Virus record (IMG/VR): IMGVR_UViG_3300036821_000136
Coordinates: 1-64,000 of that record
Length of the DNA: 64,000 nucleotides
Origin: a virus
Taxonomy: Duplodnaviria; Caudoviricetes
Reading direction: 5' to 3' (one strand)
Shown: positions 38,731 to 64,000 of the stretch, piece after piece
Numbering within the stretch: the first letter of the stretch is position 1
Layout of the letters: each line of letters begins with the position of its first letter
The notes under the pieces: model-generated
Database searches by the model: none
What the model saw: the letters and a program-made list of their open reading frames with translations, nothing else
What the model was told of the DNA's origin: nothing
Program-made: the position numbers and the translations under genes

Positions 38731-40305
38731 CGACGACGACCGCGGCGAGCTGCTGGGCCCGGCGCTGCTGGCGCTCGCCGAGGTGATGCTGGCGCGGGCC
38801 CGGGCCGCCAACCTGGCCGCGATGGCCCGGGCGGAGGGGCTGATCACCGAGATGGACGTGCGCTGCGCGCAGCTGGCGTGCGAGCGGTGCTACGGCGGCC
38901 CGGCGCTGGCCGGGACCGGGACGGGCGACTGCAGCTGCCCGGCGCGGTGCCCGGTGCGGCACTGCCTGGCCGGCGACGGGGTGCTCGACGGCGGCGCGCC
39001 GTGACCGCCGCGCTGCTGCGGGTCCGGCCCGTCGGCGGCCGCGCCGCCACCTTCGTCGCCATCCACGACGACGAGACCGAGCTGGTGCTGGCCCGCATCG
39101 GCCAGGCGTTCGCCGGCCTGACCGGCTGCGACCCGGGCGCCGTCGACGCCCGCGTGATGCCGTGGGAGACGCTGCCCGGCCCCGGCATCAGGGCGATCGC
39201 GGCGGCGCAGCTGGCCGCCGGCGGGCCCGGCACGATCGTGTTCCTCGGCACCGCCGCCGGCGGGCAGTGGGCGACCTGGCACGTGCCCGCGCCGGCGCCG
39301 TTCCCGGCGCCGCGGTGAGCGGCAAGCCGCCGCCGGCGCACTGCGGGTCGTGCCTGGCCCCGGTCTACTGGGCGTTCCCCGAGCGCGGCGCGCCGCCCGG
39401 GCGGGGCGGGAGGCCGGCGGGCAAGATGCCGATCGACGCCGGGTCGGCGGGCACCGGCAACGCCGAGGTGTGGCAGGACGGGGCGGTGCTGCGCTACCGG
39501 ATGCTGCGCGACGGCGAGCAGCCCGGCGAGGGCCGGTTCCGGGGCATGCCGCACTGGGTGACCTGCGAGCACGCCGGCCAGTGGCGGAACCGGTGACCGG
39601 CCCGCCGGCGGGGCCGCGATCGGGCGGTGACCGCGTGCAGGTCAAGATAGCGGGCGAGCACGGCGGCTCGTACACGGTCACCGGCCGCCTGCTGACCGAC
39701 GGCAACACCATCGACGGCACCACGTGGTACGTGATGGAGACCGACCACGGCGCCCGGCTCATCGTGGCCGCCGGCGAGCTGCAGGACCCGGCCGGTGACT
39801 GACCCGGTGCCGCCGTCGGGGCCGATCGCGACCGCGCTCTGGCAGGCCGCGCCGATGCTCGAGGAGGTCACCGGCGGCGCCCTGGCCGAGCACACCGAGG
39901 CGGGAACGCGGGCGATCGAGGCGCGCGTCGCGCAGGGTCATCTGTGCGTGCTCTGCGGGCAGCCGGCCGGCGCCGCGCTGGTGGTCCGGCCGGGCCCGGA
40001 GTCGCCGGCGTCGTTCGCGCCGCGGTGGGCGGACCTGTGCGTGCCGCACTTCGCGCTGCTGGTCGCCGAGAGCCCCTGGGAGCCTGGCCGTGGCTGACCC
40101 GGTGGCGGGCTGGCCGTTCACCGACCCGGTCACCGGCGAGGAGTGCGCGCTGGTGGTCCGCAGCGGCCGGGCGTACGTGAACTGCGGCGGGTGCGGCGGA
40201 CTGGCCGACGTGGTGCCGGTGCTCGACGCGTTCTACTGCGCGCGGTGCGGCTGGTCGGGGCGGGTGTCGGGCGCCTGGGTCGCGGGGCTGCTGGCCGGGC
40301 TGTAG
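38723..40305 (+). other. Coupled small hypothetical ORFs, many with Zn-finger-like CxxC pairs
   Basis: 38723-39004, 39795-40097, 40090-40305 and others with overlapping start/stop. Confidence 0.5.
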
Positions 40306-40347
40306 GACCGACGTCACACCGGGGACGGCGCGGCTGACCGCCCGGCC

Positions 40348-40374
40348 TGGTATTATGTATATATGAGCAACACG
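40348..40374 (+). promoter_or_regulatory. Repeated promoter motif (leaderless start)
   Basis: TGGTATTATGTATATATGAGCAACACG. Confidence 0.8.
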
Positions 40375-40548
40375 ACAAGCAAGACCGTGAGCACCCGCCA
40401 GTACCAGGCATCGCACGGCCGCAGCCCGCGCGGCTACGGCCAGTGGATGTTCGAGCTGCGCGGGGCCGGCGAGATCGTCACCCGCACCGGCACCTACACC
40501 GACGCCAGGAAGGCGCTGCCCGCCGGCAACTGGGTGGTGCTCCCGTAA
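40363..40548 (+). CDS. Small hypothetical protein (MSNT start)
   Basis: ATG inside the promoter motif; HGRSPRGYGQWMF. Confidence 0.7.
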   Translation: MSNTTSKTVSTRQYQASHGRSPRGYGQWMFELRGAGEIVTRTGTYTDARKALPAGNWVVLP

Positions 40549-41051
40549 TGACCAGCCGCGCCGCCTACGCCGGGATCACCTACGTGGTCCCGTGCTCGGC
40601 CCGCAAGGCCGCCGCGCCCGCCCCGGCCCGCGACCTGTACACCGGCGCGATGTTCACCCACAGCCTGGCCGCCGCCGAGGCGCTGGCCCGCTGGGACCGC
40701 CAGCAGGGCCGCGAGGCCCGGATCCTGGTCCTGAGCGCCCGGCACGGCCTGGTCACCCTCGACCAGGTGATCGCCCCCTACGACCGCAAGATCGGCGACC
40801 CCGGGTCGGTCACCCCCGCCCGGCTGGCCGGCCAGGCATGGCAGCTGGGCCTCCGCGCCGACGGCGACGGCTGGGCCCGCTCGCCCGAGGTCTACTCGCT
40901 GTGCCCCGCCGCCTATTACGACGTCCTGTCGAGCGCCCTGCAGCGGCTCGGCGTCTACCCCCAGGACTGCTACGAGGGCACCGCCGGGATCGGCGATCAG
41001 CGTCACGTCAACACCGTCTGCGGCTGGGACACCACCCCGGCCGCCGCCTGA
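40548..41051 (+). CDS. DUF6884-like protein
   Basis: VVPCSARK....PARDLYTG.MF...ILVLSARHGLV....IAPYD...GIGDQ. Confidence 0.7.
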   Translation: MTSRAAYAGITYVVPCSARKAAAPAPARDLYTGAMFTHSLAAAEALARWDRQQGREARILVLSARHGLVTLDQVIAPYDRKIGDPGSVTPARLAGQAWQLGLRADGDGWARSPEVYSLCPAAYYDVLSSALQRLGVYPQDCYEGTAGIGDQRHVNTVCGWDTTPAAA

Positions 41052-41062
41052 AGGAGAGACAA

Positions 41063-41679
41063 ATGACCACCACCAACGTCGTGCCCGTATTCGGGCCGCC
41101 CGAGACCGTCACCGTCGCCGAGCTGCGCGCCGGCGACTTCCTGATCGCCATCCCGGCGCAGGAAGGCGTCCGCGGCGTCACCGTCAATTCCGGCATCGCC
41201 GAGCTGAGCGACGACTGGAACACGTGGCGCCAGAGCACCGGCTACCGGCGGCCGAAGGTGCCCGTCCGGTCCGTCGTCATCATCGTCCGCGACCCGAAGG
41301 CGAAGCCGGTCAACCGGCCGGCCGGCTTCCTGGCCGAGGTCCGCCGCCCGCAGGCGGCGGTGTGACCGCCGCGCCCCGGCGGGCGCTGACCCCCGCCGAC
41401 GTCACCCGCCGCTACCGGGCGTTCCGCTCGGGCCGGCCGGAGGCGTGGGCGGCCGCGTCCCGCGACGGGCTGTGGACCTACGAGCGGCTGGAGATCAGCG
41501 GCACGCCGTGGGAGGCCCGGCACGTCCCGACCGGGATCGCCGGGCCCTGGTACGGCACGCTGACCGCCGCCCGCGCGGCGACCGCCGACGGCACGGCGCT
41601 GGCCGCCGTCGAGCGGATCGCGGTGCACGAGCGCGGCGGGCACGCGGCCGGGCGCGACCCCCGGTGCCTGCGCTGCTAG
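41063..41679 (+). other. Two small hypothetical ORFs (41063-41365, 41362-41679)
   Basis: First follows CTGAAGGAGAGAC; second coupled by GTGA. Confidence 0.6.
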
Positions 41680-41934
41680 CCGCGCTCGCTGTCCGGGATC
41701 ACCTCGGCCAGGTTCCCCTCCCAGCGTTTGCCGTTGATCCAGATGATGCAGTGGCGGTGCCGGGCGGCCGCCGGCGTGCCGCTGATCTCGCCAAGGTGCA
41801 CCTCCATTGCCGGGCGCTGCTCGGTCTCCCGGGCTGCCTGGTCATCGCTCATCGCTGCCTCCTGTAGTAGGACCGACGCCACATTCGAATACGTACGGAA
41901 TCGCGCCCCGACCAGCCCAGACGCGGCCGGGGCG

Positions 41935-41961
41935 TGGTACTATGTATATATGAGCAACACG
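41935..41961 (+). promoter_or_regulatory. Repeated promoter motif (leaderless start of ORF 41950-42183)
   Basis: TGGTACTATGTATATATGAGCAACACG. Confidence 0.8.
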
Positions 41962-42216
41962 GACAGGCACCCGATGACCAGGAACCAGGCCCGCACGATC
42001 GCCAGGGCGATCGACGCCGGCGCCGACGCCAGCCGCTACCACGTCGGCGGCGTGCTGCCGGACGAGGTACTCGACCAGATCGTCGACATATCCATGGCCC
42101 TCGGCTGCACCTGCCCGGCCTTCCAGCGCACCCACCCGCACCACAGCCCGGCCCGCGTCCGCCGCGGCGGCCGGCTCGTCTGACCACCACCACCGCCACC
42201 TGAAGGAGAGACCACC

Positions 42217-42855
42217 ATGACCACCGCCACCAAGAGCCGCAGCCGCCGCAAGGCACCCACCCGCGCCAGCGTCGAGGCCGCCGCCAAGCGCAAGGCCGAG
42301 CTGTTCGACAAGCTGGAGGCCTGGGAAGACGAGACCGACCAGGACACCATCGACGCCGCGGTCGCCATGTTCGCCGCGATCGACGACGGCTACTCCGACC
42401 GCAACGCGATGCTGATCGCCATGCAGGACCCGGAGGCCACGAAGGTCGCCGGCTACCGCCAGTGGCAGGACGTCGGCCGCCAGGTCGGCAGCTACCCCGA
42501 GGGCCAGGGCGGCATCACCATCGTCCGGTTCGCCGGCAGCTACAAGTCCAAGGACGCCGACGGCGCCGGTCCCTCGGCCGACTTCGGCGCCAAGCCCGCC
42601 GAGCACGACGCGGCCGCCGACGACGCCAAGGCCAAGGAGCGCAACCGGTTCGCGCTGACCACCGTGCACGACATCCGGTGGACCACCGAACTGCGCTGCG
42701 CGACCTGCGACGCCAAGATCCACCGCACCGGCTACGACAAGGCGACGAAGCGGCACACCTGGACGCACAGCGACCAGCTCAACGTCGGCCACCCCGTCGA
42801 GCTGCCCCGCCGCCCCGTCGCCGAGGACGCCGAGCAGGCCGGCACCGCCGAGTAG
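42217..42855 (+). CDS. ArdC-like N-terminal (ssDNA-binding, antirestriction-associated) domain protein
   Basis: YSDRNAMLIAMQDPEATKVAGYRQWQDVGRQV...GITI...F..TTVHDI..T. Confidence 0.75.
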   Translation: MTTATKSRSRRKAPTRASVEAAAKRKAELFDKLEAWEDETDQDTIDAAVAMFAAIDDGYSDRNAMLIAMQDPEATKVAGYRQWQDVGRQVGSYPEGQGGITIVRFAGSYKSKDADGAGPSADFGAKPAEHDAAADDAKAKERNRFALTTVHDIRWTTELRCATCDAKIHRTGYDKATKRHTWTHSDQLNVGHPVELPRRPVAEDAEQAGTAE

Positions 42856-42916
42856 ACACACACCCGACCACCGGGCGCCCGCCAAGGGCGCCCGGACCTA
42901 TCCCTGAAGGAGAGAC

Positions 42917-43650
42917 ATGACCACCACCACCCCGACCGAGGCCCGCAAGGCCGACGCCGAGCGGTACGCCGCCCGGCTCGGCCTGGACGCCGAGGCGCTG
43001 CACGCCGCCGCGATCGCCGTCTGGAGCAACCTCAACCCGCAGGCGACCGGTTTCGACGTCGCGCTGTCGGCCGCCGCCGCCGCGCTGCTCGCCGTCACCC
43101 GGGCAGCCGGCAGCCGGCAGGCCGCCGAGACCGCGCGGCTCGTCACCGCCGCCCAGCCCGGCGACCGGGAGCTGATCACCGCCGTGCTGACCGAGACCGC
43201 CGACGCCCGGGACCGGGAATCGCGCGGGCACCGCTGGACCGGCGAGCGTTTCGCCGGCGTCCGCGCCCGGCTGCGCGGCGAGGCCCGCCAGATGCGCGAC
43301 CTGGCCGGCCGGCTGGCGGCGTCGTCATGACCGCCCTCGGCGACACCCGCCGGCCCGCCGCCCGCGCGGCGGTGCTGGCGGTCCTGATCGAGCAGACCAC
43401 CGACTACCCCGGCGGCCACGAGCCGCTGACCATGAGCCGCGACCTGCTCGCCTACCGGACCGGGCTGCCCCGCACCGTCGCCGCGGCGGCCGCCGACGCG
43501 CTCGCCAAGACCGGCGCCGTGACCAGGCTGCGCGAGCGCGGGCGGGTCGTCTACTACGTGCCGCGGGCCGGGCTGGACACCGTCCCGATCGAGACCGGGC
43601 CCGTCGCCCGCGCCTACATCGACGCGGTGACCGCCGAGGGGGACCGGTGA
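42917..43650 (+). other. Two hypothetical ORFs (42917-43330; 43327-43650 wHTH-like)
   Basis: Start sequence before 42917; LAYRTGLPRTV...LAKTGAV pattern. Confidence 0.55.
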
Positions 43651-44291
43651 CGCACCAGCTGGCCCTGCGGCTGTCGCCGCTGGTCGCCTTCTACCAGGTC
43701 GACATGGCCGAGGCCGAGGACCTGCTGATCAGGTGGCGGCACCCGCTGCACCTGCCCACCGGCGAGTGCCCGTCGTGCGGCAAGCCGCACCCCGGCGGCC
43801 GGCCGTACGAGCGGCCGTTCGGGCGGCTGCCGTTCGTGATGGAGGACCGCGGCCGGGTCGCGGCGTGCGTGGTGCTCGCCTCGACGATCAACGCCAGCGT
43901 GTGCAAGGCGCGCGGCTGGCACCGCTACAACACCGTCGACCTGGCGCGGATCGCCCGGTCCCCCGACCGCCGCGACGAGAAGTGCCTGCGGGCGGTGCTG
44001 CGGATCACGCGGGAGTACCTGGCGCCGCTGTGGCTGGACACCTCGGCGAAGTGGGCGGCCCGGTCGGCGGAGCTGTGCGGCCGCCCGCAGCTCGCCGCGC
44101 TCGCCACCCAGTCGCTGCCCGGCACGCCGGGGTCCATGTACCGGTTCGACGGGTTCGAGCACATCCGCACGACCAGGGGCGCGCACGGCGGCGGCCACCA
44201 GAAGGCGAGCGCGGCCAACGCGATCGACGACGGCGCGCGCGGGCTGTGGGTCTACCCGTACCCCCGGCCGCTGCTGGCGGGCGCCGCGTAG
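43647..44291 (+). CDS. Mom-like (GNAT-fold) DNA-modification protein
   Basis: WRHPL...VDLARIAR...LRAVLR...LATQS..G..GSMYRFDGF resembles Mom-family acetyltransferase motifs. Confidence 0.5.
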   Translation: MTHQLALRLSPLVAFYQVDMAEAEDLLIRWRHPLHLPTGECPSCGKPHPGGRPYERPFGRLPFVMEDRGRVAACVVLASTINASVCKARGWHRYNTVDLARIARSPDRRDEKCLRAVLRITREYLAPLWLDTSAKWAARSAELCGRPQLAALATQSLPGTPGSMYRFDGFEHIRTTRGAHGGGHQKASAANAIDDGARGLWVYPYPRPLLAGAA

Positions 44292-44388
44292 CCCGGCGGG
44301 CCACGGCGCCGCCGCATGTATGTGCCGTGCCCGGGAACGCCGCCGCCCCCGGCGCGGTGCGCGGCGGGGGCGGGTGACGGGCGGGCGG

Positions 44389-45047
44389 TCAGCCTTCCGG
44401 CCAGCCCCACCGGGGGCGGGTCCACCGCACCATCGAGCCGACGCGGGCGTAGACCTCCGGGATGTAGAAGAACCGGTAGCGGCCGCCCGGGCAGGCGAGC
44501 GTGTGGGCCCGCTGCCCGGTGCCGTCCTGGACGTGGTCGCGGACCAGCGTCAGGCCGTGGTCGTGGCCGCGGACCGGGCAGGCCGGGAACGCCGGCGCGG
44601 TCGTGGTCGTCATCGGTCAGCCCTCCTGCCCGGCGGCGGGCGCCGCCGGGGTCTCGTTGTGCTCGGCGCAGGCCGGGCGGGGCCCGAGGCCCCGCCAGTA
44701 GCCCGCGCAGGTGCAGGGGCCGCTCATCAGGTTCGCCATCAGTGGCTCACCATCGCGCCGCGCATGCCCACGCGGGGCGAGCGCCGCCCGGGGCTGACGT
44801 AGGCGGGGGCGGACCACACGCGGCGGCCGTCGCGGACGAACCAGCGGCCGCGGTGGTAGGTCTTGCGGATCATGGTCTCTCTCCTTCAGATGTGCAGGTC
44901 GGCGCCGGTGGCGGGGTGGTACCGGGGCGGGTCGCTCAGGTCGCCCTCGACGACGGCGAAGCCGCCGCCGACGCGGGCCCACCACACGCGGTCGGTGTGG
45001 TCGTAGGTCCAGGGACCGTAGGTGTCGGCGTCGCTTTCGTGTTGCAT
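44389..45047 (-). other. Leftward operon of four very small ORFs starting at leaderless ATG 45047
   Basis: MQHESDAD...(44886-45047), start sequence at 44871-44889, 44389-44613. Confidence 0.55.
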
Positions 45048-45062
45048 ATATATAAGGTACAC
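45038..45062 (-). promoter_or_regulatory. Repeated promoter motif, minus strand
   Basis: GTGTACCTTATATATATGCAACACG. Confidence 0.75.
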
Positions 45063-45158
45063 CAACGCCGCCGTGACTTCGCCCGTTCCGGCAGGCCAGG
45101 GCACGTTTTCCGGTGTGATGACCGTCCTACGCCCAGGGGCGTCACGGGCGGCTCCACG

Positions 45159-45185
45159 TGGTATTATGTATATATGAGCAACACG
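45159..45185 (+). promoter_or_regulatory. Repeated promoter motif (leaderless start of ORF 45174-45368)
   Basis: TGGTATTATGTATATATGAGCAACACG. Confidence 0.8.
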
Positions 45186-45379
45186 ACAGCCACCGCCACC
45201 GCCACCGCCGGCCGGAGCTACACGACCGGCATGGTGCACGACGCCCGGCCGACCGGCCCCGAGGGCCAGCTGACCCAGCGGTGCGGCATGGGCCGCCGCC
45301 AGCTCGCCTACCTCGCCCCCACCGACGCCCCGGTCACCTGCAAGCGGTGCCTGGGCCTCGGCGCCTGAAGGAGACCACG

Positions 45380-45808
45380 ATGACCGACACCATCACCCGC
45401 CTGGCCGGCGAGGACCGCACCGCGTTCCTGGCCGCCGCCGCGGCCGCCGCCGACGAGTTCCTTGACGAGTCCGCCGACGCCGGCGTGACCGGCTGGCCGA
45501 CCTTCACCCACGCGGTCGTCGCGCTCGGCGAGTACATCACCGCCGTCGCCGCCGTGGCCGACTGGGGCCGGCAGCCGGTCCCGCACCGCGAGCCGGCCAT
45601 GACCTCGGCGGCCGCCGTCACCGGCACCGACCGGGACGCCCTGGCCGCCGCCGTCGCCGCCGCCGCCACCGAGTACGTCGAGGAATCTGAGGCCGAGGGC
45701 GAGGACGTGTGGCCCAGCTTCACCGCCGCCCTGCAGGACTTCGGCCTGTACCTGACCCACGGCGCCGGCGACGCCGACTGGGGCTACCTGCCAACCGCCA
45801 CCGCCTGA
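45380..45808 (+). CDS. Acidic protein made of two tandem homologous ~60-aa units
   Basis: GEDR..LAAAAAAADEF.DES...WPTFT...ADWG and GTDR..LAAAVAAAATEY.EES...WPSFT...ADWG. Confidence 0.7.
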   Translation: MTDTITRLAGEDRTAFLAAAAAAADEFLDESADAGVTGWPTFTHAVVALGEYITAVAAVADWGRQPVPHREPAMTSAAAVTGTDRDALAAAVAAAATEYVEESEAEGEDVWPSFTAALQDFGLYLTHGAGDADWGYLPTATA

Positions 45809-45842
45809 CCACCGCCAAACCGGCACTTGAAGGAGAGAGACC

Positions 45843-47478
45843 ATGACCGCACGACACGACTGGCAGCCCGGCGATTTCGCCACCTTCCCCGACAGCCGCC
45901 GCGGCCCCGACCGCACCGGCATCTACACCGGCGAGACCCGCGTCTCGACCACCCGCCTCACCGCCCTCGGCGAGGAAGTGACCCGCAAGGTGCCCGTCAC
46001 CTACGCGATGATCCTCGTCACGCCGGCCGGCGGCCTGGACCACCCCGGCCGCGGCGCCGGCTCGGTCAGCGTCGACGTGCGCAAGCTGCGCCCGGCGACC
46101 CCCGCCGAAATCACCGCCAGCGACGTCCGGCAGGGCTGGGCGACGTGCCAGGCGCGGGCCGCGGCCGCCGCGGCGTGGTGGGAGGCCGCCACCCCGGCGG
46201 TCACCTACCTGATCGAAGCGGGCTACGCCGACGGCCACGGCCAGATGGGCATGGCCATCGTGAACCTGCTGCTCGAGGCCGACCGCTACCCCGGCCGGTA
46301 CGCCTACACGCTCGACCGCCGGCACTGGGTGGTCAAGTACATGCCCGCCCGGTGGAACGCCGGCGCGACCCACCCCGCCGACCCGGCGCTGCGCGCCACG
46401 GCGGGCGGTGCGCGGTGACCGCCGACCTGACCGCCGCCGCGCTCGCCGCCGCCGCCGAGCTCGACGACGAGGCCGAGGACGCGGCCAAGGCCAAGCCCAA
46501 GCCGCGCCACCCGTGCGGGTTCTGCGCGACCGGCGACCACAACCTGTGCAAGGAGACGATCCGCAACGGGTCGCAGGCCAAGGTGGCTGTGTGGGAGTGC
46601 CCGTGCTGGCAGGCCGGGCACACCCTCGGCCGCCAGCCGCCGCTCAACCGCACCCCGCCGCGGATGGCCGCCTCGGCGATGCCGCCCCGCCCGGCCGCCG
46701 TCGTCACCGTCGACCTGCCCGGCACGTCCCCGGCCGGCCCGCCCGTGCGCCGGTCCTCGAGGCGGGCCGCGCCCTCGCCGTTCCCGGCCGGCGTGGTCAG
46801 CCCGTACGGCTTCCGCAAGGCCCTGCTCGACGCGGGCCTGGAGCCGGCGTCGTTCCGGCCGCAGACCGTCTACACGTGGGTCAAGCAGGCCGCCGCCGGC
46901 GGCACGTTCCCGGTCCGCTGGTACGCCGGCGGCGCCGAGACCGACGCGGGCGCCGACGGCGCCAAGCCCGGCGTCCCGGTCGAGCAGGCCCTCGCCTGGC
47001 ACCGGGCGGGCGGCGCCAAGTGAACGCCGCCGAGATCACCACCCCGTGCCTGGTCTGCGCGGTGCAGGCCGCGCTCAAGGACTCCGCGTTCTGGGCGGGC
47101 CGCGGCCTGAGCTGGCCAGTCGCCGAGGTCGCCGGCCACACCGCCCACAAGGCGTGCGCGTCCGAGGTCGAGCACCTGATCGCCGTCATCGGCGGCCTGG
47201 CCGTCGACGCCGCCGGGGTGCCCCGCTGGACCGCCAGCGGCAACGTGCCCCCCGACGACACCGTCGCGCTGATCATCGCCTTCGGCCTGGCCGGCGGCAT
47301 CGACGCGGTGGCGGCGTCCGCCGCCTACGCCGAGCAGACCGCCGAGGCGATCGCCGCCTACCGCCGCGAGCGCGAGCTGCAGGGCTACAGCGACGAGGAA
47401 CTGGCGCAGATGGCCGCCGCGTTCGGCCCGGGCGCCACCGTCGTCGACGCGCTCACCGGCCAGCGGATCGAGCTGTGA
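45843..47478 (+). other. Three coupled hypothetical ORFs (45843-46418, 46415-47023, 47020-47478)
   Basis: Start sequence before 45843; GTGA overlaps. Confidence 0.6.
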
Positions 47479-47927
47479 GCAGGCGCCGCCGCCGGCGCGG
47501 CGCGCTGTACCTGGTCTGCTACCACCGGCCGTTCCGGCACGCCCGCCATTACCTGGGATTCGCCTACCCCGACGACCTCGGCCGCGCCGACCCGCTGATC
47601 GTCGCGGAGGTCCGCGCCGCGCCCCAGACGCGGATCACCTGCCGGTACCTGACCGCCGCGCAGGCCGCCGGGGTCGCCTGCCGGATCGCCCAGCACCGCG
47701 CCGGGGTCGGCGCCCGGATCCTCGCCGTGATCGGCGCGGCGGGCATCGGGTTCGACGTCGTGCGGATCTGGCCGAGCGCCACCGAGCACCACGAGAAGGG
47801 CCTGAAGGAGCTGAAGAACGGCGCGCTGCTGTGCCCGCGCTGCCATCCCGGCACCCGCGCCGGCGACGTCATCACGCCGCGTACGTCGCGCCGCCCGCGC
47901 CGCCGTCAGCTCGTCCCGGCCGCCTGA
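47475..47927 (+). CDS. GIY-YIG-like endonuclease
   Basis: LYLVCY...HARHYLG...RIAQHRAG.GAR...VRIW....EK.LK...LCPRC. Confidence 0.65.
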   Translation: MSRRRRRRGALYLVCYHRPFRHARHYLGFAYPDDLGRADPLIVAEVRAAPQTRITCRYLTAAQAAGVACRIAQHRAGVGARILAVIGAAGIGFDVVRIWPSATEHHEKGLKELKNGALLCPRCHPGTRAGDVITPRTSRRPRRRQLVPAA

Positions 47928-47969
47928 CGAGTGACCGGCGGCCGTAGCCCGCCGGGCTACGGGCAGACG

Positions 47970-48010
47970 CAGGCGGCGGCACCCCCCCGGGGTCGGGGTG
48001 CCGCCGCCTG
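47970..48010. terminator. 16-bp GC hairpin between convergent genes
   Basis: CAGGCGGCGGCACCCC / GGGGTGCCGCCGCCTG. Confidence 0.7.
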
Positions 48011-48021
48011 GTCGTGCCGGG

Positions 48022-48309: not shown

Positions 48310-48681
48310 GCGCGCAGTGTAACACCGGCGTGACGGTGCGGAGGCGGGTCGCGGGCCGGCCCCCGGGGGCACCGTGCACTGGGCTCCCTGATAGGCGTGG
48401 GGGCCGGCCCGGCCGGGCGGCCCGGAGGTTGCGGCCGGGTGCGCAGGCATCCTGCGGAAGCGGCCGGGGGCACCGGACGCCCGGACACGGCCAGGATAGC
48501 GGGCGGGGACGGCGGCGGCCGGCCAGGCCCGGGCGTTGGGCTGGCCGGCCGCCAGTGGCGTCGCCCTGCGTAGTAGTACACAGGCGGTGCCGGCAAGATT
48601 ACGCTGCGCGACCCGCCGCGTCCAGTGTGCCCGAGGGCACAGCACCGGACACGTTTTCGGGAGCCGGCACCTGACCTGGGC

Positions 48682-48708
48682 TGGTATTGTATATATATAA
48701 GCAACACG
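48682..48708 (+). promoter_or_regulatory. Repeated promoter motif (leadered variant)
   Basis: TGGTATTGTATATATATAAGCAACACG followed by CTGAAGGAG. Confidence 0.8.
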
Positions 48709-48729
48709 GCAGACTGAAGGAGCACGACA

Positions 48730-49476: not shown

Positions 49477-49585
49477 CTCCCGCCCGCGAGGCGGCGGCCC
49501 CCCGGCGACGGGGCGGCCGTCGCTTTCGTGTGCCGGACGGCACACCGCCCGGACGCTTGTTCGAGCGCCGCCGCCTGACCTGCGG

Positions 49586-49612
49586 GGGTATTCTGTATAT
49601 ATAAGCAATACG
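49586..49612 (+). promoter_or_regulatory. Repeated promoter motif (leadered variant)
   Basis: GGGTATTCTGTATATATAAGCAATACG. Confidence 0.75.
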
Positions 49613-49626
49613 GGATTGGAGCCCAG

Positions 49627-51620: not shown

Positions 51621-51676
51621 CCCCGCCAAACCTAGGAAGGACCTGCCCGGAACATATTTCCCTGATATATATCGCG

Positions 51677-51714
51677 CCGCCCGCGCCGCCCCTGACCTGG
51701 GGCGGCGCGGGCGG
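51677..51714 (+). terminator. 16-bp perfect GC hairpin
   Basis: CCGCCCGCGCCGCCCC-TGACCT-GGGGCGGCGCGGGCGG. Confidence 0.7.
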
Positions 51715-55341: not shown

Positions 55342-55442
55342 GGCGTGTGCGCCGCCTTCCGGTAGGAGTCTGGGCAGCAGCACTCTAACAGGCGGTAACC
55401 GGATCGTTCCGCAGCGCAACGACGCGATTCGCGATTCGCGAT

Positions 55443-56788
55443 TCACCAAACGCTAAAGGGCCCGGGCGGCGCTGCCGCCGGGGCCCTGCCGATAGCCAAT
55501 CCTCCTTTCCCGGGCGATGCTAACGCGGCGTCGCCGGGGTCGTCCGGCTCTTCGCGGCCGACGGCGCGGCGCAGCGGGTGGTGCCGGCCGTACAGCCGGG
55601 TGACCCGCAGGTCGCCGTCGTCGCCGGCGATCTTGCGCGCCTTGCGGCGGGCGGCCAGCCGGGTCGAGGCGTGCACGCCGAACGTCATCACCCGCGGCGC
55701 GCTGCCCAGCAGGATCAGCGTGCCGTCACGGTCGATCGCCACGACCGGCGCGGGGCCGGGCCAGGTGACGCGCACCTGCCAGTTCCTCGTCCGGGGCATC
55801 ACACGTCCTCGGGATGGGCACCGGCGGCGAGGCCCTGCAGGTACTTCTCGCCCTCCAGGTCGCGCAGGATGCCGAGCGCCGCCGCCGAGCTGGCGGCCAG
55901 CTCGGGGCAGAGCGCGATCAGCGCGGCCAGGGCGTCGTCGGCGGTCTCGATGTACATCAGTTGACCGCCCGGGCGATCTGCTCGTCGGTCACCCAGGTCC
56001 GGCACCGGCACTGGCGCCGGCACATGGCGAACACGTAGGCGACCGGGGCCCGGCAGCGCAGGCACAGCATCACGGCGTCCCTCCTGACCTGCCGCGTCAC
56101 CGGCAGGGTTCTCGTTTTGCGACCCGGTTTGAGGCGCCCGGGCCGACTTGTAATTTTTGTAACTGTGTTTCAGATATTGGCCGGCGGGGCGCCGTGCCGG
56201 GCGATCTGCGCGGCGACCATCTTGCGGCTGGCGGTCATCGCGTCCTGCAGCCGGGCCTCGGCCCGGGCGCCGGAGAACTGGCTGGTGACGCGGGTCGACC
56301 GGTCGACGCCGCCGGCGGCGGTGAGCAGGTACTGGACGACGTAGAACTCGGGCAGGGTGTGGCCCTCGCGGACGTGCCGGTAGACGCGCAGGCGGAAGAT
56401 CCGGCCGTCGTCGGCGTAGCAGGTCAGCGTCTCGACGTCGGTGGTGCGGCGGCGGGGGATCCGGTGGTTGGCCATGTCAGGCGCCGTCGTCGCAGGACCG
56501 GCAGAGCCGGTCGTAGTCGCTCATCCGCGCGTCGTCGTCGCAGACCGGGCGGCCGCAGCCGACGCACAGGCCGTCGGCCGGGCCGCTGCACAGGTGGCAC
56601 GACTCCGCGGCGTGGGCCAGGACGGCGGCCAGGTTGGCGACCGGGAAGGTGCCGTCGGCGGTGCGGACGGCGACCAGGTAGCCGCTGGCGTCCTTGCCGT
56701 AGGCGAGCACCGGGGGCCCGTTCAGCCGGCCGCCGGTGGCGGCGATCCAGGTGACTGCCCACGCGGTGTCGGTGGTGTCGGTGGCCAT
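55443..56788 (-). other. Leftward operon of small hypothetical ORFs (56477-56788, 56170-56475, 55443-55802 and others)
   Basis: Driven by the minus-strand promoter motif at 56810-56836 with a start sequence. Confidence 0.55.
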
Positions 56789-56809
56789 GGGTCTCTCTCC
56801 TTCAGTTAC

Positions 56810-56836
56810 CGTGTTGCGTATATATACATGGTACCA
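56810..56836 (-). promoter_or_regulatory. Repeated promoter motif, minus strand
   Basis: TGGTACCATGTATATATACGCAACACG. Confidence 0.8.
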
Positions 56837-56872
56837 TACGTGGGGCGTCCCGGCGCCATCGTCCCTGGCCGG

Positions 56873-56899
56873 GGGTACCGTCTATATATGGGCAACACG
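56873..56899 (+). promoter_or_regulatory. Repeated promoter motif
   Basis: GGGTACCGTCTATATATGGGCAACACG. Confidence 0.7.
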
Positions 56900-56927
56900 C
56901 CCGCCTGACCGCCTGAAGGAGAGACCG

Positions 56928-57416
56928 ATGACCCACCACCCGCACGAGCCCGCCGCCAACCAGCTCGGCCCCGACCTGGAAGCCACCTCGACGACGCCGG
57001 CCTGGGTCGGCGCCCCCCGCCCGGCCCGCGGCGACTACACCGTCGGCTGGCGCATCGAGGTCGCCGCGGTCAGCCCGGAGCACGCCGCCAGCGCCGCCCT
57101 GGCCGCCCAGCGCGGCCGGGGATCGCGCGCCACCGTGTTCACCGTCTCCGACGGCTCCAGCACGTGGCGCGTCGACCTGACCGAGGGCACCACCGAGCTG
57201 CTGGCGGGCGGGCCGCCGGAGCCCGGCGGGCTACTGCACGTGTTCACGCTGCGGATCCCGTCGGAGGCGGTGACCGACAGCCCGGCGGGGTGGGGGACGG
57301 CGCTGATCGGCCAGATCCGCCGGCTGATGGCCGACGCCGGGATCGGCGACTACGAGCTGTGGCTGTCGACCGTCGGGCGGGGCACCGTCGAGGACGTCGC
57401 TCCCGAGGACGTGTGA
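56928..57416 (+). CDS. Hypothetical protein
   Basis: Follows CTGAAGGAGAGAC. Confidence 0.6.
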   Translation: MTHHPHEPAANQLGPDLEATSTTPAWVGAPRPARGDYTVGWRIEVAAVSPEHAASAALAAQRGRGSRATVFTVSDGSSTWRVDLTEGTTELLAGGPPEPGGLLHVFTLRIPSEAVTDSPAGWGTALIGQIRRLMADAGIGDYELWLSTVGRGTVEDVAPEDV

Positions 57417-57458
57417 CCGGCGTCCCGCCACCGGGCTACCCCCGCCCGCCCGCGCCGG

Positions 57459-57485
57459 GGGTACCATGTATATATAAGCAACACG
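57459..57485 (+). promoter_or_regulatory. Repeated promoter motif (leadered variant)
   Basis: GGGTACCATGTATATATAAGCAACACG then CTGAAGGAGAGAC. Confidence 0.8.
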
Positions 57486-57508
57486 GCCACTGAAGGAGAG
57501 ACACCACC

Positions 57509-58045
57509 ATGATCGACACCGCCGCCCTCCCGCTTGAGGACCGGTACGCCCGCTACGCCGCCAACGAGGCCGCCCTCCGCGCCGTCGACGACGTCGTGGT
57601 CCTGCTCGGCGACAAGACCCCCGGCAGGCTGTACACCATCGTCAAGACCAACCCGACCACGCTGATCCTCGCGCCCGCCGACGGCGGCCTGCAGGTCAAG
57701 GCGCACCGGTCGCTGGTCGAGGACGCGCCCGCCGGATCGGCCGCCAAGGTCGCCGCCGCCGCCGCGACCGTCCTGCCGCACCAGCCGCTCGGCGCGCTGG
57801 TCCGCCTCAAGGCCACCGCCCCGCCCGCCGGCGGGATCAACCCCGGCGAGGTCTGCGTCGTGATCATCGACAAGGGTGACCGCGTCCACGTCGCCAAGAT
57901 CGGCGGCGTGCAGACCGCCCGCGGCGACGCCTACGCCCGCCCGCCCCGCGCGCTGGTCGAGGCCGTCAGCCCCGGCGACGTGCTGGTGCCCGCCGAGGTC
58001 AAGCCGGTCGCCGGCGCCCGCCCGTCACGCGGCCGGAGGTCATGA
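57509..58045 (+). CDS. Hypothetical protein with small beta-barrel (SH3/KOW-like) domains
   Basis: DDVVVL....GRLYTIVKTNPTTLILAPADGG.QVKA...LV.DAP. Confidence 0.6.
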   Translation: MIDTAALPLEDRYARYAANEAALRAVDDVVVLLGDKTPGRLYTIVKTNPTTLILAPADGGLQVKAHRSLVEDAPAGSAAKVAAAAATVLPHQPLGALVRLKATAPPAGGINPGEVCVVIIDKGDRVHVAKIGGVQTARGDAYARPPRALVEAVSPGDVLVPAEVKPVAGARPSRGRRS

Positions 58046-60113
58046 TGCAGTACCGGTTCACGTGCGCCCAGCACAACGTGGTGCTGGGCGGCTGCCCCGA
58101 GTTCTACCCCGCCGCCGAGGACGCGGCCGGCGGGGTCGCCGAGTGGGTCATCGACCTGTCCGACATGTCGTGCAGCGCCGACGACGCCTCCGACAACGGC
58201 AGCGGCTGCTCCGCCACCTGGCAGATCACCGCCGCCGGGGTCAGCCTCGCCGCGTTCACCCCCGCCGAGACGGCCGGGCTGTCCGACGCGCTCGCCGTCG
58301 CCGAGAACGCCGACGAGCACCTGACCCGCGACCAGCTCGCCGCGGCCGCCAAGCTCGACGCGGCGTTCGCGGCGGCCCCCGGGCCGCCCGCCGACCGCTA
58401 CCCGGCGCCCGACCCCGCCGGCACCGACTGGGACGCCTACCCGCCGCTGAGCGACGAGACCGCCTGCCTGGTCATGCAGGAGATCCTGGTCGACACCGAG
58501 TTCCTGTGGCTGACGGCGGTCAACCCGCCCAGCGGCGAGCGCGCCGAGGTCACCATCGTCGACGCGGTCACCACGTTCGCGGGCAACTGCTGGGACGACC
58601 AGCACGACGGCGGCGCCCACCGGCAGAACCTGATCGACGCCAACCGGCTGCTGGGCTGGCTGGACCGCCCCGACCTGCGCGACGACTACAACGACGTGCA
58701 CAGCCTGGTCGGCGACGACGTGCCCGAGCCCGAGCGCTGGGCGAGCCGGCCATGAGGGCGGGCGTGTCGAGCAGCGGCCGCTGGTGGGTCAGCATGGGCC
58801 CCGTCGGCTGGCTGATCTACGCGGTCTGCTGGCTGGCCGGGGCGATACTGATCATCGCCGCCCGGCTGGTCTGGGCGCTGGCGCTGGGGGTCGCCTGGCT
58901 CGCCCGCGCCGGCTGGCGCGCCGCGACCACGAGAGGACAAGACCGATGACCCGCGCCTACGACACGATGCCGGGCGTCCCGGCCGCCGGCCACATCGCCG
59001 GCGGCGCCTGGCACCCCGGCCCCTCCCACCACTGCACCAAGTGCGAGCCGCCGCCGCGCCCGGGCACCGCCGACGCGGCCCGCTGGTACCTGCAGCGCGA
59101 CCTGTCCTACGGCCTGGCCGCCGACGCCACGATCGCCGACGCCCGCCGGTACAACGGCCGCTACGTCTACACCCCCGACGGCTGCGCGTGGGTGCTCGCC
59201 GCCCGCGCCACCGGGCGGCTGGTCTGGTCGTTCGGCCGGGCGACCCGCGCCGAGCAGCACCTGGCCCACGACCGGCGCACGCCGACGGCGACCCGCGTGG
59301 ACCCCGACGCGGTCCACGCCGGCGACCGGATCGCCTGGGGCACCGCGCGGGGCGGGCGCCTGGCCGGCTCCGGTACGGTCGAGTTCGCCACCGCCGAGGC
59401 GGTGCACGTGATCAGCGGCGCCGGCTACCACTACCCGATCGCCTGGACCAGGGTCACCGGCCACTGGCCGGCGGCCGCCTGAAGGAGAGAGACATGACCG
59501 ACACCGCCGCGGCGATGCGCCGCCCCAGGATGCGCCGCGCCCTGCTCGCGCACCTGTTCGACAACCACGGGGTCATGCTGACCCGCGCCGACTCCGCCCG
59601 CGAGTCGCTGGGCCAGCTCGCCGAGATGGACCCGTGCGGCGCCGCGCCGCCGCTGGGCGACGCCGACCTCGGCTACGACGCCGACGGCTGGCGGGTCCGC
59701 CGGTCGGGCGGGACGGACTTCCGGGTCACCGACTGCTGCGCCAAGGACGCCACCACCGCCGACGGCGACGACGAGGGCACCATCGTGTGCCGCCGCTGCA
59801 AGCAGCCGGCCGGCGAGTCGCTCGCGCTGCCCCCGATGCTGCCCTACCTGGCGCCGGACGGTCACGTGCTGGTCCGGGCCGACACCGCGAAGGAGAGAGA
59901 CCGGTGAGCGGCTTCTACGCGATCCGGCAGGCCCGCACGCGGGTGATCGGGTCGCGGCTGATGACCCGCGAGCAGGCCGACCGGGAGGTCGCGGTGTGGG
60001 CGGCCGAGATCGGCCCGGCCCGCGTGCTGCCCGCCACCCCCGACCTGGCGCACGCGGTGCGCTACTACGACCAGGCCATCCTGGTGCCCGCGCTGAAGGG
60101 CGAGCCCTGGTGA
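58042..60113 (+). other. Coupled small hypothetical ORFs (58042-58755, 58946-59482, 59494-59907 and others)
   Basis: ATGA/GTGA overlaps and start-sequence copies at about 59479 and 59887. Confidence 0.55.
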
Positions 60114-60373
60114 CCGATGCCAGCGGCAGGCGCCGCCCGAAGTTCCGCAGCGCGGGGTCACCCGACCGGCTGACCGGCACGGTGACCCGCTGGGACCCCG
60201 GCGCCAGCTACGGGATGATCACCGGCGACGACGGCGGCAGCTACTTCCTGTCCGCCGCCGACCTGCCGCGCGGCCGCGAGAGCCTGGCCGTGGGGACCGC
60301 CGTCACCTTCACCAGCGGCGCCCCGGCACCCGGCAAGCGGTACCCGCGCGCCCGCCAGGCCCGGCCCGCATGA
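60110..60373 (+). CDS. Cold-shock-domain (OB-fold) protein
   Basis: LTGTVTRWD...SYGMITGDDG..YFL...L...L.VG..VTF. Confidence 0.7.
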   Translation: MTDASGRRRPKFRSAGSPDRLTGTVTRWDPGASYGMITGDDGGSYFLSAADLPRGRESLAVGTAVTFTSGAPAPGKRYPRARQARPA

Positions 60374-60664
60374 TCACCGGCTACCAGGCCGGGACGGCCC
60401 GGCCGGAGCCGTGGCTGCCCGCCGGCCGGCACGCGGTCGCGGTGGTGCGGCTGGCGCACGGCGTCGAGCGGCCCGAGCCGGCCGCGGTGTGCGGCACGTG
60501 GATCGAGCACGCCAAGCCGGGCGGGCCGCTGGTGATCTCCTGCCCGGCCTGCGCGCGGGTCCTGGGCGCGCTACGGGCTACTCAGTAGCAGGCGAGCGGC
60601 CGTAGCCCGGCGGGCCACGGGACCGGGGTCACGGCCGCCCGGGGCGCCACCGGGCGGCCCCATG

Positions 60665-60691
60665 CCGTATTATGGATATATGAGGAACACG
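60665..60691 (+). promoter_or_regulatory. Repeated promoter motif (leaderless start of ORF 60680-60958)
   Basis: CCGTATTATGGATATATGAGGAACACG. Confidence 0.75.
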
Positions 60692-61365
60692 ACAGACACC
60701 ATGACCGCCCGGCACTGCTCGGGCTGCGCCCAGGTCGACCCCATCGACGACGGCGACGGCTACACCGACTGCTGCAACGAGTGGATCTGCGACGGCAACG
60801 GCGCCGACCGGTGGACCGTCGGGACCCTCACGTTCGACGAGGCCGGCCGCGAGGTCCGCACCGTCACCGGCGAGCTGCTCGCCTGCTGCGGCGGCCAGGC
60901 CGACAAGCTGGCCGCCGCCCAGGCCCCCGGCCGCATCGCGCTGTGCCGCGCGCTCTGACACCACCACCTGAAGGAGAGACCGACATGACGACCCCCGACA
61001 CCAGCCGGACCCACCGGTTCCCGCCGACCGGCTGCGTCAACCAATGGGCCGCCGACCACGACCACGCCGACTGCTGGGCCGCCTTCCTGGCCTTCCACGA
61101 AGCGCCGGCCGGGCTGGGCATCGACGAGTTCTACCGCTGGCTGGAGACGACCCCGCACGCCGCCGACATCACCCCCGACGGCGATGGGTTCCTGGTGACC
61201 TGCCGCCGCGGCTGCGCGCTGGGCACCAGCGCGCGCCAGAGCGACCGGGCGGGCGCCGGCCGGCGGGTCCGGCAGCACCGGATCTGCACGACTCCGCTGA
61301 CCGCCTGAGTGTGCCCGACGGCACACCGGCCGGGTACCGGCCAGGGCGAGTTCCGGCGCCCCGGC

Positions 61366-61392
61366 TGGTACTATGTATATATGAGCAACACG
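61366..61392 (+). promoter_or_regulatory. Repeated promoter motif
   Basis: TGGTACTATGTATATATGAGCAACACG then CTGAAGGAG. Confidence 0.8.
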
Positions 61393-61923
61393 GCCACTGA
61401 AGGAGCCCCGATGACCACCCCGACCGCCAGCCGCGACGTCCGCGCCAACCCGGGCAACCGGGCCGGCCGCTACGTCGAGACCGCCGAGTACATCCAGGCG
61501 GCCCGCCGGTTCGTCCGCGGCGCCGGCCGCCGGGTCGGCGACATGAACCTCGACGACCTCGACATGCTCATCGCGCTGGCCGAGGAAGCCAACGCCGTCG
61601 CCCACGAGGCCGCCCGCGACCTGCACGACCGCGAGAAGGACGGCTACTCCTGGCAGGAGATCGGCGAGGCCGTCGGCTACGACCCGAAGACCGCCCGGCA
61701 CACCGCCTGGAAGCGGTTCAAGGGCGCCCGCCGCGCCTTCCCGGCCGCCCCCCGCAAGGTCGTCAAGGACGACATAGTGGGCGTGTCCGGCCGCAAGTAC
61801 GCCGGCCGCCGGTTCATCGTCGAGCGGGTCAGCCCGGCGACCGCCCTGCTGGCGCCGGTCGGCGGCGGACCCAAGGTCCGCGCCTTCCACGACCTGATCA
61901 CCGACGCGCCCGAGGAGGGCTGA
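61381..61923 (+). CDS. HTH DNA-binding protein with C-terminal SH3-like domain (alternative start 61411)
   Basis: GYSWQEIGEAVG....ARHTAWKRF. Confidence 0.7.
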   Translation: MSNTATEGAPMTTPTASRDVRANPGNRAGRYVETAEYIQAARRFVRGAGRRVGDMNLDDLDMLIALAEEANAVAHEAARDLHDREKDGYSWQEIGEAVGYDPKTARHTAWKRFKGARRAFPAAPRKVVKDDIVGVSGRKYAGRRFIVERVSPATALLAPVGGGPKVRAFHDLITDAPEEG

Positions 61924-61926
61924 CCG

Positions 61927-64000
61927 ATGCCGCACCTGATCATGATCTTCCCGGTGCTGTGGGGCTGGGCCCTGGCGCACTGGTACCTCGGCGCCGCCGC
62001 CCTGGCCGCCGCCACCCTGACCGCGGTCATCGGCCGCAGGAAGGCCTGACCAATGGACCTGCCCGACAAGGACCTGCTGTTCATCCGCGTCGCCGTGTGC
62101 TGCAGCCGCCCCGGCTGCGGCCTGGCGACGCCCTGCCCGGCCTGCGCCGGCATCATGCGCGTGCCGCTGATCGCCGAGCGGTTCCGGCTGATCGCCGCCG
62201 CCGACGCCGAGCCGCCCGGCCCCGACCGGGACGCCCTGGCCGCCCGCATCACCGAGATCGAGCGCTGGCTCGACGCCCACCCCGAGGCCGCCGCCGATGA
62301 TGACACCTGCCCGTGGTGCGGCGGCCCGATGCCGTGCACCGGGCCCTGCGACTACTCGATGGGCGGAGACCAGTGATGGACGACCAGCAGCGCACCGGCG
62401 TCACCGTCACCCAGTACCAGGGGCCGACGATGCGTTTCGAGACCGCCCAGGCGTACGGCGCCTGGCTGCTGTCCGGCGCCGGGGACCCCGACTTCGCCGT
62501 TGACCTGCACGAGAGCTGGGACGACCCCGGCTACGCGGCCGACGGCGCCCGGATCATCGACGCGATGGCCGACGCCGCCGGCGAGCCCGCCCCCGAGCCC
62601 TACCGGGCCAGCGTGACGCTCCCGGCCGGCGGCGCCCACCCGTTCGAGTGGACGATCACCTGGCCCGCCGGCTGGACCCCGCCCGGCTACCAGGTCACCG
62701 CCTGCCCGGCCTGCGGGCAGGTCACCGAGCCCTACAGCCTGACCGACCCGCGCCTCGTCCACCGCGACACCGGCTGGACCATGTGCGACCCCGACACCTG
62801 GAAGGCGTAGCCCGCCGGGCTACGCGGCAACCGCGAAGGAGAGAGACCGATGACCAAGACCGACACCGGCACGTGGGCCGCCGAGCCGCTGGTCTACGGC
62901 GGCACCGCGGCGGGCAAGACCGTCGCCCGCGTGGCCGTCTGGTATGACGAGCAGCGCAACCAGCTGGTATTCAGCCCCGACAAAGGCCGCCACTACGTGA
63001 TCGGCGGCGTCTACGACACCGAGGTCCGCCGCGACGCCGGCGGCCAGGTCAAGAGCCGCCGCGGCACGCCCCGGTTCACCGGGCGCCACCCCGACACCGA
63101 ATGGGTCGCCGTGCTCGAGGCCGACGACTACGCCGCCCAGCAGAAGATCGCCGCCGGCCAGCTGGAGCGCCGCGCCCGCCGCGACCCGGAGATCGCCAAG
63201 GTGCTCCAGCCGGTCGAGGCGTTCGCCGCCGGCCTCAACTACGCCCAGCGCGACGCGCTGATCGCCCTGATCACCCGCACGGTCTACCGTGCCAGGAACA
63301 CCGGAAAGAGCTGACCACCATGCCCATGTTCAGGAAGACTGAGCGCACCCCCGAGGAGGCGGCGCTGCGCGCCGCCCAGTTCGCCGCGATCGGCGCCAGC
63401 ATCGACCTGCCCGGCCTGTACCGCGGCGCCGGTCCCGGCAAGATCGCCAGGCGGCTCGCCGAGCTGGCCGCCGGCGGCGGCACCGCCGAGGTCACCGGGC
63501 AGACGTCGCGCACGTCGATCGGCGGCGCGCTCGGCGGCGAGCTGATCGCCGGGCCGGTCGGCGCCGTCATCGGCGGGTCCCGGCACCGCACCCAGGTCGT
63601 CGTCCGCGACGGCGCCGGCGGCGTCAAGGTGACCGAGGTCCGCGACGCGCAGAAGGCGTACGCCTTCACCGAGGCGTTCGCCGCCTACGCCGCCATCGTC
63701 GCTGGCGGGACCGACGTCCCGTGACCTGCGGTTACCCCCTGCCCGCGTTGCCGATATATAGTGTGGTCAGTTGCCGGTGTACCGGTGACCACTGAAGGAG
63801 AGAGACACACCATGACCGTTCCGCCGCCGGGCATCACGTGCCCGCCCGACCCCGGCCGCCAGATCAGCGCCGCGCGCCGCGCCCAGGGGTTCCGCGACCA
63901 GGACCACCTCGACCGCTGGTTCGCCTACTCCGACCACACCAGGGAGTGCCCGGCCTGCGGCCTGCCCGGCGACGGCTACGACGGCCCCGACGGCTGGCAG
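61927..64000 (+). other. Small hypothetical ORFs (62053-62376, 62376-62810, 62850-63314, 63319-63724, 63812-partial)
   Basis: Co-oriented, with start-sequence copies at about 62833 and 63792. Confidence 0.55.

Follow-up and report, generated by a model that had tools for sequence, protein, structure and literature searches.

Introduction

Multi-copy intergenic repressor sites are known from the actinophages phiC31 (the CIRs) and L5 (the stoperators). In phiC31 the CIRs reportedly accompany conserved early promoters, and in both phages a single phage regulator is said to serve many promoters of one type; as described, these sites are highly conserved and bound by a repressor, and stoperators are asymmetric and depend on orientation. 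A host regulator may also be recruited: in E. coli, host cAMP-CRP represses the pir, dam and recE promoters of phage T1, as shown experimentally (PMC6737242). Proteins of the CRP/GlxR family bind dyads of the form TGTGA-N6-TCACA. CAP residues R180, E181 and R185 contact G2 and G4 of TGTGA, and the operators share a conserved GT(N10)AC core (PMC10187061); the consensus for S. coelicolor Crp is GTG(N)6GNCAC (PMC10033298). The Streptomyces Rex operator (ROP), TTGTGAA-N4-TTCACAA, is also a dyad on TGTG/CACA, with validated half-sites that include TGTGAC, TGTGAT and TGTGCA (PMC5355995). Here we describe nine related 16-bp dyads ("boxes") lying at phased distances upstream of a repeated promoter cassette in a tailed phage, virus record IMGVR_UViG_3300036821_000136. 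The stretch analyzed (the window) is the first 64 kb of this single 108,246-bp record, at 75.5% G+C.

Results

Most cassette promoters share a 16-bp dyad upstream

The promoter is a 26-nt cassette, GGTAYYATGTATATAT(R)AGCAACACG, with 11 strong copies, all within 40.3-61.4 kb. With one shortened copy (27.9 kb) and one TATAGT variant (63.76 kb), the total comes to about 13, and no copy was found beyond 64 kb of the 108-kb record. Six of the 11 strong copies carry TGG-TAYYRT, an extended -10 element of the actinobacterial TANNNT type. Seven nucleotides past the -10 there is a well-coded leaderless ATG without a Shine-Dalgarno sequence at 40363, 41950, 45174 and 45047 (minus strand); the remaining copies have an aligned ATA at this point, then ACTGAAGGAG and ATG. 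The A of the leaderless ATG or the position aligned with it, 7 nt after the TGG-TAYYAT extended -10, was taken as the predicted +1. This placement is reasonable, because the layout of the cassette agrees with the rules for Streptomyces, namely a TANNNT -10, a share of about 20% leaderless mRNAs, which start at AUG, and RRGGAG as the ribosome-binding site (PMC6742748). No -35 element was found at the proper distance from the cassette -10, TGAC words lying only 9-12 nt from it (compare PMC6742748).

Ten upstream segments (-95 to -40) were searched de novo for the best shared 16-mer, on either strand, with one site per segment and leave-one-out scoring. The output was exactly the nine boxes of Table 1, and none for promoter 27921. 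The leave-one-out score was 92.2, as against 22.2±2.9 (maximum 32.0) for 100 dinucleotide shuffles and 29.8±6.1 (maximum 50.8) for 100 sets of real gene-end segments from the same genome. In wider, 134-bp segments (-150 to -17) the same nine sites ranked top, so the confinement of the boxes to -82 to -45 is not an artefact of the segment chosen. When each box was left out in turn, 0-16 of about 216,000 other genome positions scored as well with the matrix of the other eight, and the chance of an equal match per 51-bp segment was 0.0005-0.008, depending on the box; box 40303 scores 20.3 bits, and no background position equals it. An earlier sequence-only reading of the window had listed nine 16-mers as a promoter-linked family; each was recovered in place and letter for letter, and both the shuffles and the rest of the genome set the family apart. 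We conclude that the motif family is real and beyond chance, extends over no more than 16 bp, and goes with the promoters and not with the ends of upstream genes.

The consensus, (G)TGTGMC-N4-GKCACA(C), is a 6-N4-6 dyad that can equally be read as 5-6-5. Information amounts to about 1-1.6 bits per position over the two hexamers, 0.4 in the inner four bases and about zero in the flanks, where a weak G precedes and a weak C follows. The 18 half-sites comprise TGTGCC (six), CGGGAC (four), TAGGAC (three), TGTGAC (two), and TGTGGC, TGTGAT and CGTGAC (one each); G4 is invariant (18/18), followed by C6 (17/18), G2 (15/18), and T3 and A5 (11/18 each). The three perfect TGTGCC-N4-GGCACA palindromes (48626, 49529 and 61310) are the sole TGTG-N8-CACA sites in the 108-kb genome, where about 0.5 would be expected from base composition, and each of them precedes a cassette +1 by 63.5-64.5 bp. 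With a matrix made from the remaining six boxes, these palindromes rank within the top 29 positions of the genome; hence the family is coherent.

Given scores far beyond both null distributions, it is improbable that the boxes are functionless, being leftovers of duplicated modules mixed with chance GC-rich near-palindromes. Such an origin would account for two pairs of promoter regions that are paralogous through their spacers, for the exact recurrence of the 60618 16-mer in a coding region at 17452, and for words like GGAC-N4-GTCAC, which are fairly common in the coding DNA of this genome. It does not account for 16 bp that stay similar while the flanks and most spacers do not (boxes 40303 and 41868 match at 15/16 positions between unrelated flanks), or for positions that are quantised within the 134-bp search space.

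Three known elements were considered and rejected: the SOS box (GAAC-N4-GTTC), the DasR dre site and a PshAI-like GAC-N4-GTC either misfit the invariant G4 or cover only part of the nine boxes.

The best box-like sites away from the cassettes, CGTGACGGCGGTCACG and GGTGACGGCGGTCACG, are inside genes (1121-1136 and 19537-19552). A further one, TGTGACGGCCGCCCCG, at record positions 75137-75152, is intergenic, precedes the gene at 75186, and is near a repeated word, CTGATGGCG(T/C)TTT.

Table 1. Boxes, promoter cassettes, candidate DNA-binding proteins and repeated palindromes (window coordinates unless marked as record; box distances are from box centre)
Feature	Position	Strand	Remarks
Box TAGGAC-CGAC-GTCACA	40303..40318		-52.5 from +1 40363; over TAG stop of upstream gene
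Box TAGGAC-CGAC-GCCACA	41868..41883		-74.5 from +1 41950; divergent region
Box TGTGAT-GACC-GTCCTA	45114..45129		-52.5 from +1 45174; -74.5 from leftward ATG 45047
Box TGTGCC-CGAG-GGCACA	48626..48641		perfect palindrome; -63.5 from +1 48697
Box TGTGCC-GGAC-GGCACA	49529..49544		perfect palindrome; -64.5 from +1 49601
Box TGTGAC-CGGC-GTCCCG	57412..57427		-54.5 from +1 57474; over TGA stop of upstream gene
Box CGGGAC-CGGG-GTCACG	60618..60633		weak; -54.5 from +1 60680
Box TGTGCC-CGAC-GGCACA	61310..61325		perfect palindrome; -63.5 from +1 61381; 2 nt after upstream TGA stop
Box CGGGAC-CGAC-GTCCCG	63706..63721		weak; about -55.5 from predicted +1 of variant TATAGT promoter
Promoter cassette GGTATTATGTATATATGAGCAACACG	40349..40374	+	extended -10 TGG-TATTAT; +1 = A of leaderless ATG at 40363
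Other cassette matches	41936-41961, 45160-45185, 48683-48708, 49587-49612, 57460-57485, 60666-60691, 61367-61392	+	
Box-less cassette	56874-56899	+	divergent partner of 56810..56835
Leftward cassette	45038..45063	-	-10 TACCTT; leaderless ATG 45047; uses box 45114
Leftward box-less cassette	56810..56835	-	divergent with 56874-56899; the two +1 are 67 bp apart
Weak shortened box-less cassette	27910..27930	-	heads leftward operon; first sizeable gene 27456-27800
Variant TATAGT promoter	-10 at 63757-63762	+	downstream of box 63706
Candidate winged-helix protein, 107 aa, MarR-like fold	43327..43650	+	in module headed by promoter 41950
Candidate HTH_36 protein	32079-32477		domain match
Candidate "DNA binding protein"	27456-27800	-	PHROG phage family match; behind box-less promoter
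Candidate GntR protein	record 66269-67069		domain match
21-bp palindrome copies	29872-29892, 36577-36597, 44286-44306, 47942-47962, 57216-57236, 60600-60620, 62805-62825		

Distances to the predicted start site suggest helical phasing

The boxes lie 40-63 bp upstream of the -10, with centres in three position classes, -52.5 to -55.5, -63.5 to -64.5, and -74.5 (Table 1); box 45114 belongs to two classes, being common to two divergent promoters. All the box-centre distances of the sequence-only reading were reproduced. The positions, which it described as falling in steps of about 11 bp, show a phase coherence of Rayleigh R about 0.9 for periods of 10-11 bp, with a jitter of 2-3 bp. In Monte Carlo trials that take the predicted +1 as given, p was 0.0008 with eight sites treated as independent and 0.05 after collapse to four classes. 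We regard phasing on one face of the helix as suggestive. Equal distances recur across spacers without detectable homology (40363 and 45174, 57474 and 60680, 48697 and 61381), as would be expected of a factor restricted to one helix face.

With respect to the upstream gene no such constancy is seen: the boxes range from overlap with its stop codon (40303, 57412 and 63706, the last within the final codons of gene 63320-63724) to 30-53 nt beyond it, while the distance to the promoter stays constant. Three of the nine boxes are in divergent regions that receive no incoming transcript, the minus-strand gene 41676-41852 starting 16 nt away from box 41868. These positions bear on the idea that the boxes act as RNA, forming 3'-end hairpins of the upstream units (U-less terminators, stabilisers or processing sites). 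In minimum-energy structures the three palindromes do form hairpins, with stems of 6-7 bp and loops of 4 nt, and several boxes come directly after a stop codon. The six asymmetric boxes, however, do not self-fold. With pairing at 3-4 of 6 positions, they keep sequence and not pairing, so that a hairpin or terminator fails to explain the family, and we rejected it as the unifying explanation. Folding z-scores of the regions are mostly insignificant, a scan with consensus terminators found none at the boxes, and box 49529 comes after a separate and much stronger terminator-like hairpin with a TTTCG tail. Action as RNA is accordingly rated very improbable. More improbable still are sites of recombination or module exchange, such as recombinase targets or cassette-shuffling boundaries. 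The boxes are indeed dyads at the upstream edge of each promoter-headed module, but such sites would not be expected to keep a constant, phased spacing from the -10, and neither flanking direct repeats nor a conserved box-to-cassette unit was found.

Next to two boxes we noted a word, ACGTTTTC(C/G)GG, which adjoins box 45114 (45095-45113) and box 48626 (48646-48662) in opposite orientations relative to the promoter, with a weaker version at 49548-49565. AAAACGTG is found just twice genome-wide. The word may represent another small element, present in part of the upstream regions.

A proposed regulator acting from upstream

It is very likely that the boxes are bound by protein in some form. The fuller reading that we put forward, tentatively and at slightly less than even chance, is that the nine boxes would be operators with the above consensus, bound by one dimeric regulator of the helix-turn-helix or winged-helix type. 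Once bound, the dimer would make contact with RNA polymerase from the upstream side, in a class-I-like mode of positive control, and so set the level or timing of the downstream early gene modules; the three cassette promoters that lack a box would be independent of it. Protein binding, the single factor and its positive effect are what we infer from the arrangement.

Several observations weigh against this reading. The box is missing at three cassette promoters (27921 and 56821 on the minus strand, 56888 on the plus strand). The family is heterogeneous, with TGTGCC, TAGGAC and CGGGAC half-sites, and a matrix made from the palindromes only recognises 40303 and 41868 and misses the others, 60618 and 63706 included; because the palindrome matrix links only 40303 and 41868, we count 60618 and 63706 as the weakest members, individually weak. 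Spacer homology within the pairs 48697/49601 and 45174/60680 (every other spacer pair is non-homologous) means that these sites are not independent, and the two paralogous module pairs cut the number of independent sites. The boxes centred at -54.5 and -55.5 are 2-3 bp off the phase set by -52.5. A good extended -10, TGG-TAYYAT, may make an activator unneeded, a point that in actinobacteria argues neither way. Finally, E. coli CRP reportedly does not activate class I promoters from -52.5; its positions include -61.5 and -72.5, from which the -52.5, -63.5 and -74.5 of the boxes are offset.

The sequence-only reading had one dimeric activator switching the whole set of modules. What survives of this is a single real dyad family tied to repeated promoters; "the whole set" is overstated, because 3 of the approximately 13 promoters have no box.

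The same boxes could instead serve negative or insulating control, bound from upstream by a phage repressor or immunity protein, or by host Rex or Crp acting as a repressor. Repression could proceed through cooperation or looping with a site in the cassette core (-16 to +14), or by a stoperator-like block to read-through. The core would offer a place for a second operator, since it is over-conserved and has weak dyad symmetry, its reverse strand scoring 14-31 bits with the same matrix. The promoters look strong alone (TGG-TAYYAT), several boxes lie right where the preceding gene ends, and the multi-copy intergenic repressor sites of phiC31 and L5 count on the same side. So does the repression of several T1 promoters by host cAMP-CRP (PMC6737242). 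Against repression, centres at -52 to -75 leave RNA polymerase unoccluded, and the three boxes in divergent regions face no read-through that could be blocked. The boxes are also unlike stoperators in having no fixed orientation to transcription. Compared with phiC31 and L5, which share with this phage the many promoters of one type and the repeated intergenic operator, they are degenerate, orientation-free dyads at fixed, phased upstream distances. For Rex in particular, the 6-N4-6 layout on TGTG/CACA is shared, but positions 6/11 are A/T in ROPs and C/G in 17/18 box half-sites, and the flanks are T in ROPs and G/C around the boxes; ROPs repress from sites that overlap or follow the promoter, between -50 and +25 or beyond +25 (PMC5355995), whereas the boxes are centred at -52 to -75. 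Taken together, we consider control of this kind unlikely, if a good deal less so than the RNA and recombination readings.

As a separate observation on the cassette core, conservation from -16 to +14 goes far beyond what a -10 needs, and GTATATAT is invariant in it (40349-61392). We take GTATATAT to resemble the GTnTAnAC core of HutC/GntR operators. On account of this resemblance, and since the phage encodes a GntR-family protein (Table 1), the cassette core might hold a repressor operator.

If a protein binds the boxes, the phage offers a natural experiment, in which about 13 promoters with the same core have an operator at one of three phased distances, share one, or have none. Face-of-helix rules for upstream regulators could then be tested on actinobacterial RNA polymerase, and the arrangement would show how an uncultured actinophage orders many early genes. 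The arrangement is ordinary in kind; its form here is new and unusually tidy.

Host Crp and a phage-encoded factor as candidate binders

The sequence-only reading named host Crp and an element-encoded factor as possible binders. The claim for Crp came out mixed. The boxes are 16-bp dyads, and their 5-6-5 geometry and near-invariant G2 and G4 fit a CRP-type read-out. G11 is as in the S. coelicolor motif, and the three palindromes match GTG(N)6GNCAC in both orientations, although this pattern is unspecific in the phage (37 strand-counted matches, mostly coding). The upstream, roughly same-face location resembles class I sites, as does the one box that serves two divergent promoters. On the other hand, no perfect TGTGA-N6-TCACA occurs among the nine boxes, and the palindromes carry C5/G12. 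RGGAC, which lacks the GT of the GT(N10)AC core (PMC10187061), occupies 7/18 half-sites, and the inner CGAC of the boxes is partly conserved. Phage T1 is a precedent for several phage promoters wired to the host cAMP sensor; the connection there is experimental, whereas that of the boxes to Crp is one of motif likeness.

To judge from five candidate host-clade genomes (43.7 Mb), a Crp-type factor probably exists in the host, because perfect TGTGA-N6-TCACA dyads number 48 in them, as against 1 for the reversed control. The form found in the palindromes, TGTGC-N6-GCACA, is weakly enriched (12 vs 4), which weakens the case for host Crp. Outside seven Rex-like AA/TT sites, position 6 of the host-clade half-sites is a pyrimidine in 78%, and the boxes are alike in this respect. 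Sampled C6/G11 sites are mostly in AT-richer DNA outside called open reading frames (ORFs), beside genes for DUF3071, NlpC/P60, a MIP channel, an ABC transporter and a D-Ala-D-Ala carboxypeptidase, which looks like the regulon of a global regulator. As these dyads are enriched, prefer a pyrimidine at position 6 and appear regulon-like, a host factor of such specificity is plausible.

One perfect dyad, TGTGACCGGCGTCACA, precedes a DUF3071 gene in two genomes, one from Nonomuraea and one from Streptosporangium (L095, G006:C55:158184; L096, G008:C55:8341), and probably serves the host as a conserved regulatory site; phage box 57412 departs from it at 2/16 positions. YRGGAC-N4-GTCACA was also tried as a host signal (15 vs 1 in the candidate host genomes), but, with GAC, GTC and CAC among the favoured codons, the count was judged to carry no information.

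On the phage side, no protein matches the cNMP-binding domain (PF00027), and HTH_Crp_2 gave only sub-threshold matches, to a MarR-like protein and to the GntR protein. The MarR-like protein, 43327-43650, scores 16.9 bits with HTH_Crp_2, below the cut-off, and has weak fold matches to the MarR family (E about 2e-3, TM about 0.5). PDB sequence searches with two candidate DNA-binding proteins returned no match. The MarR-like winged-helix protein appears as good a candidate as host Crp. That the binder is encoded by the phage, for example by this gene, comes close to an even chance in our estimate. A host Crp/GlxR-type protein, no better supported than a phage-encoded factor, is possible but doubtful, and a similar share of the chance goes to some other binder or to none. 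The complete host scenario, in which a Crp/GlxR-type cAMP receptor licenses at least nine early promoters from three in-phase positions, seems decidedly unlikely.

Were the host scenario true, it would tie all of the early programme to the physiology of the host, and the genome would hold class-I-like promoters in a natural spacing series, read by an RNA polymerase that works without a -35 element; we know of no actinophage whose early programme is wired to cAMP. Otherwise the boxes would be an ordinary, tidy example of operator-controlled phage promoters.

Phage, host and early genes

The large terminase is at most 36% identical to that of any GenBank phage. Its nearest cellular relatives (about 50% identity) are in prophages of Nonomuraea, Actinomadura, Streptosporangium and Micromonospora, while relatives in IMG/VR reach 69%. 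Because the terminase kin are in actinomycete prophages, the host is probably a filamentous, high-GC actinomycete. Gene content includes RecE/RecT-like recombination genes, a DnaB-type helicase, an N6-methylase, an ATP-dependent ligase and an ArdC-N protein. Most early genes belong to no recognisable family, nearly all of about 60 early proteins having stayed blank in Pfam and PHROG scans, and no sigma factor domain was found among the phage-encoded proteins.

Relatives of the early region proved scarce. Megablast and tblastn of the region against GenBank phages gave no match, and exact-pattern scans for the cassette in viral, genome and metagenome contigs gave chance matches only, in unrelated, mostly low-GC DNA; the cassette is absent, even at 3 mismatches, from the five IMG/VR terminase-relative records searched. 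Searches of viral contigs with the 248-aa ORF, the ligase and the winged-helix protein returned no relatives. Homologues of the winged-helix protein, at about 80% identity, are present on metagenome contigs of 20.7 kb and 88.4 kb.

Other elements in and around the cassette region

A 21-bp palindrome, CCGTAGCCCG(S)CGGGCTACGG, is present in seven places (Table 1), with 0.01 expected by chance. At 44286 and 62805 the gene before it ends in the TAG of the palindrome, several copies stand at operon ends, and it may be a REP-like or terminator-like hairpin; the first 3 nt of box 60618 belong to the copy at 60600-60620.

A near-identical translation-start context, (C)CACTGAAGGAGAGA-N4-7-ATG, is shared by many genes and recurs at 42200, 51046, 56902, 57485, 60968, 61392 and 63795, and at record positions 65140 and 65660. 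It exceeds a plain Shine-Dalgarno sequence and occurs with and without an upstream cassette. Between the weak cassette at 27.9 kb and gene 27456-27800 there is a 23-codon upstream ORF (27801-27869, minus strand). It has a ribosome-binding site of its own, GAAGGAGAG, and ends in a TGA that shares bases with the start codon of the following gene (ATGA).

Two AT-rich patches were also noted. The patch at 51640-51700 contains GAACATATTTCCCTGATATATATCG (51.65 kb), which is not a cassette copy; in that at 56088-56170, two T-tailed terminator-like hairpins are followed by TTGTAATTTTTGTAACTGTGTTTCAG at 56.1 kb.

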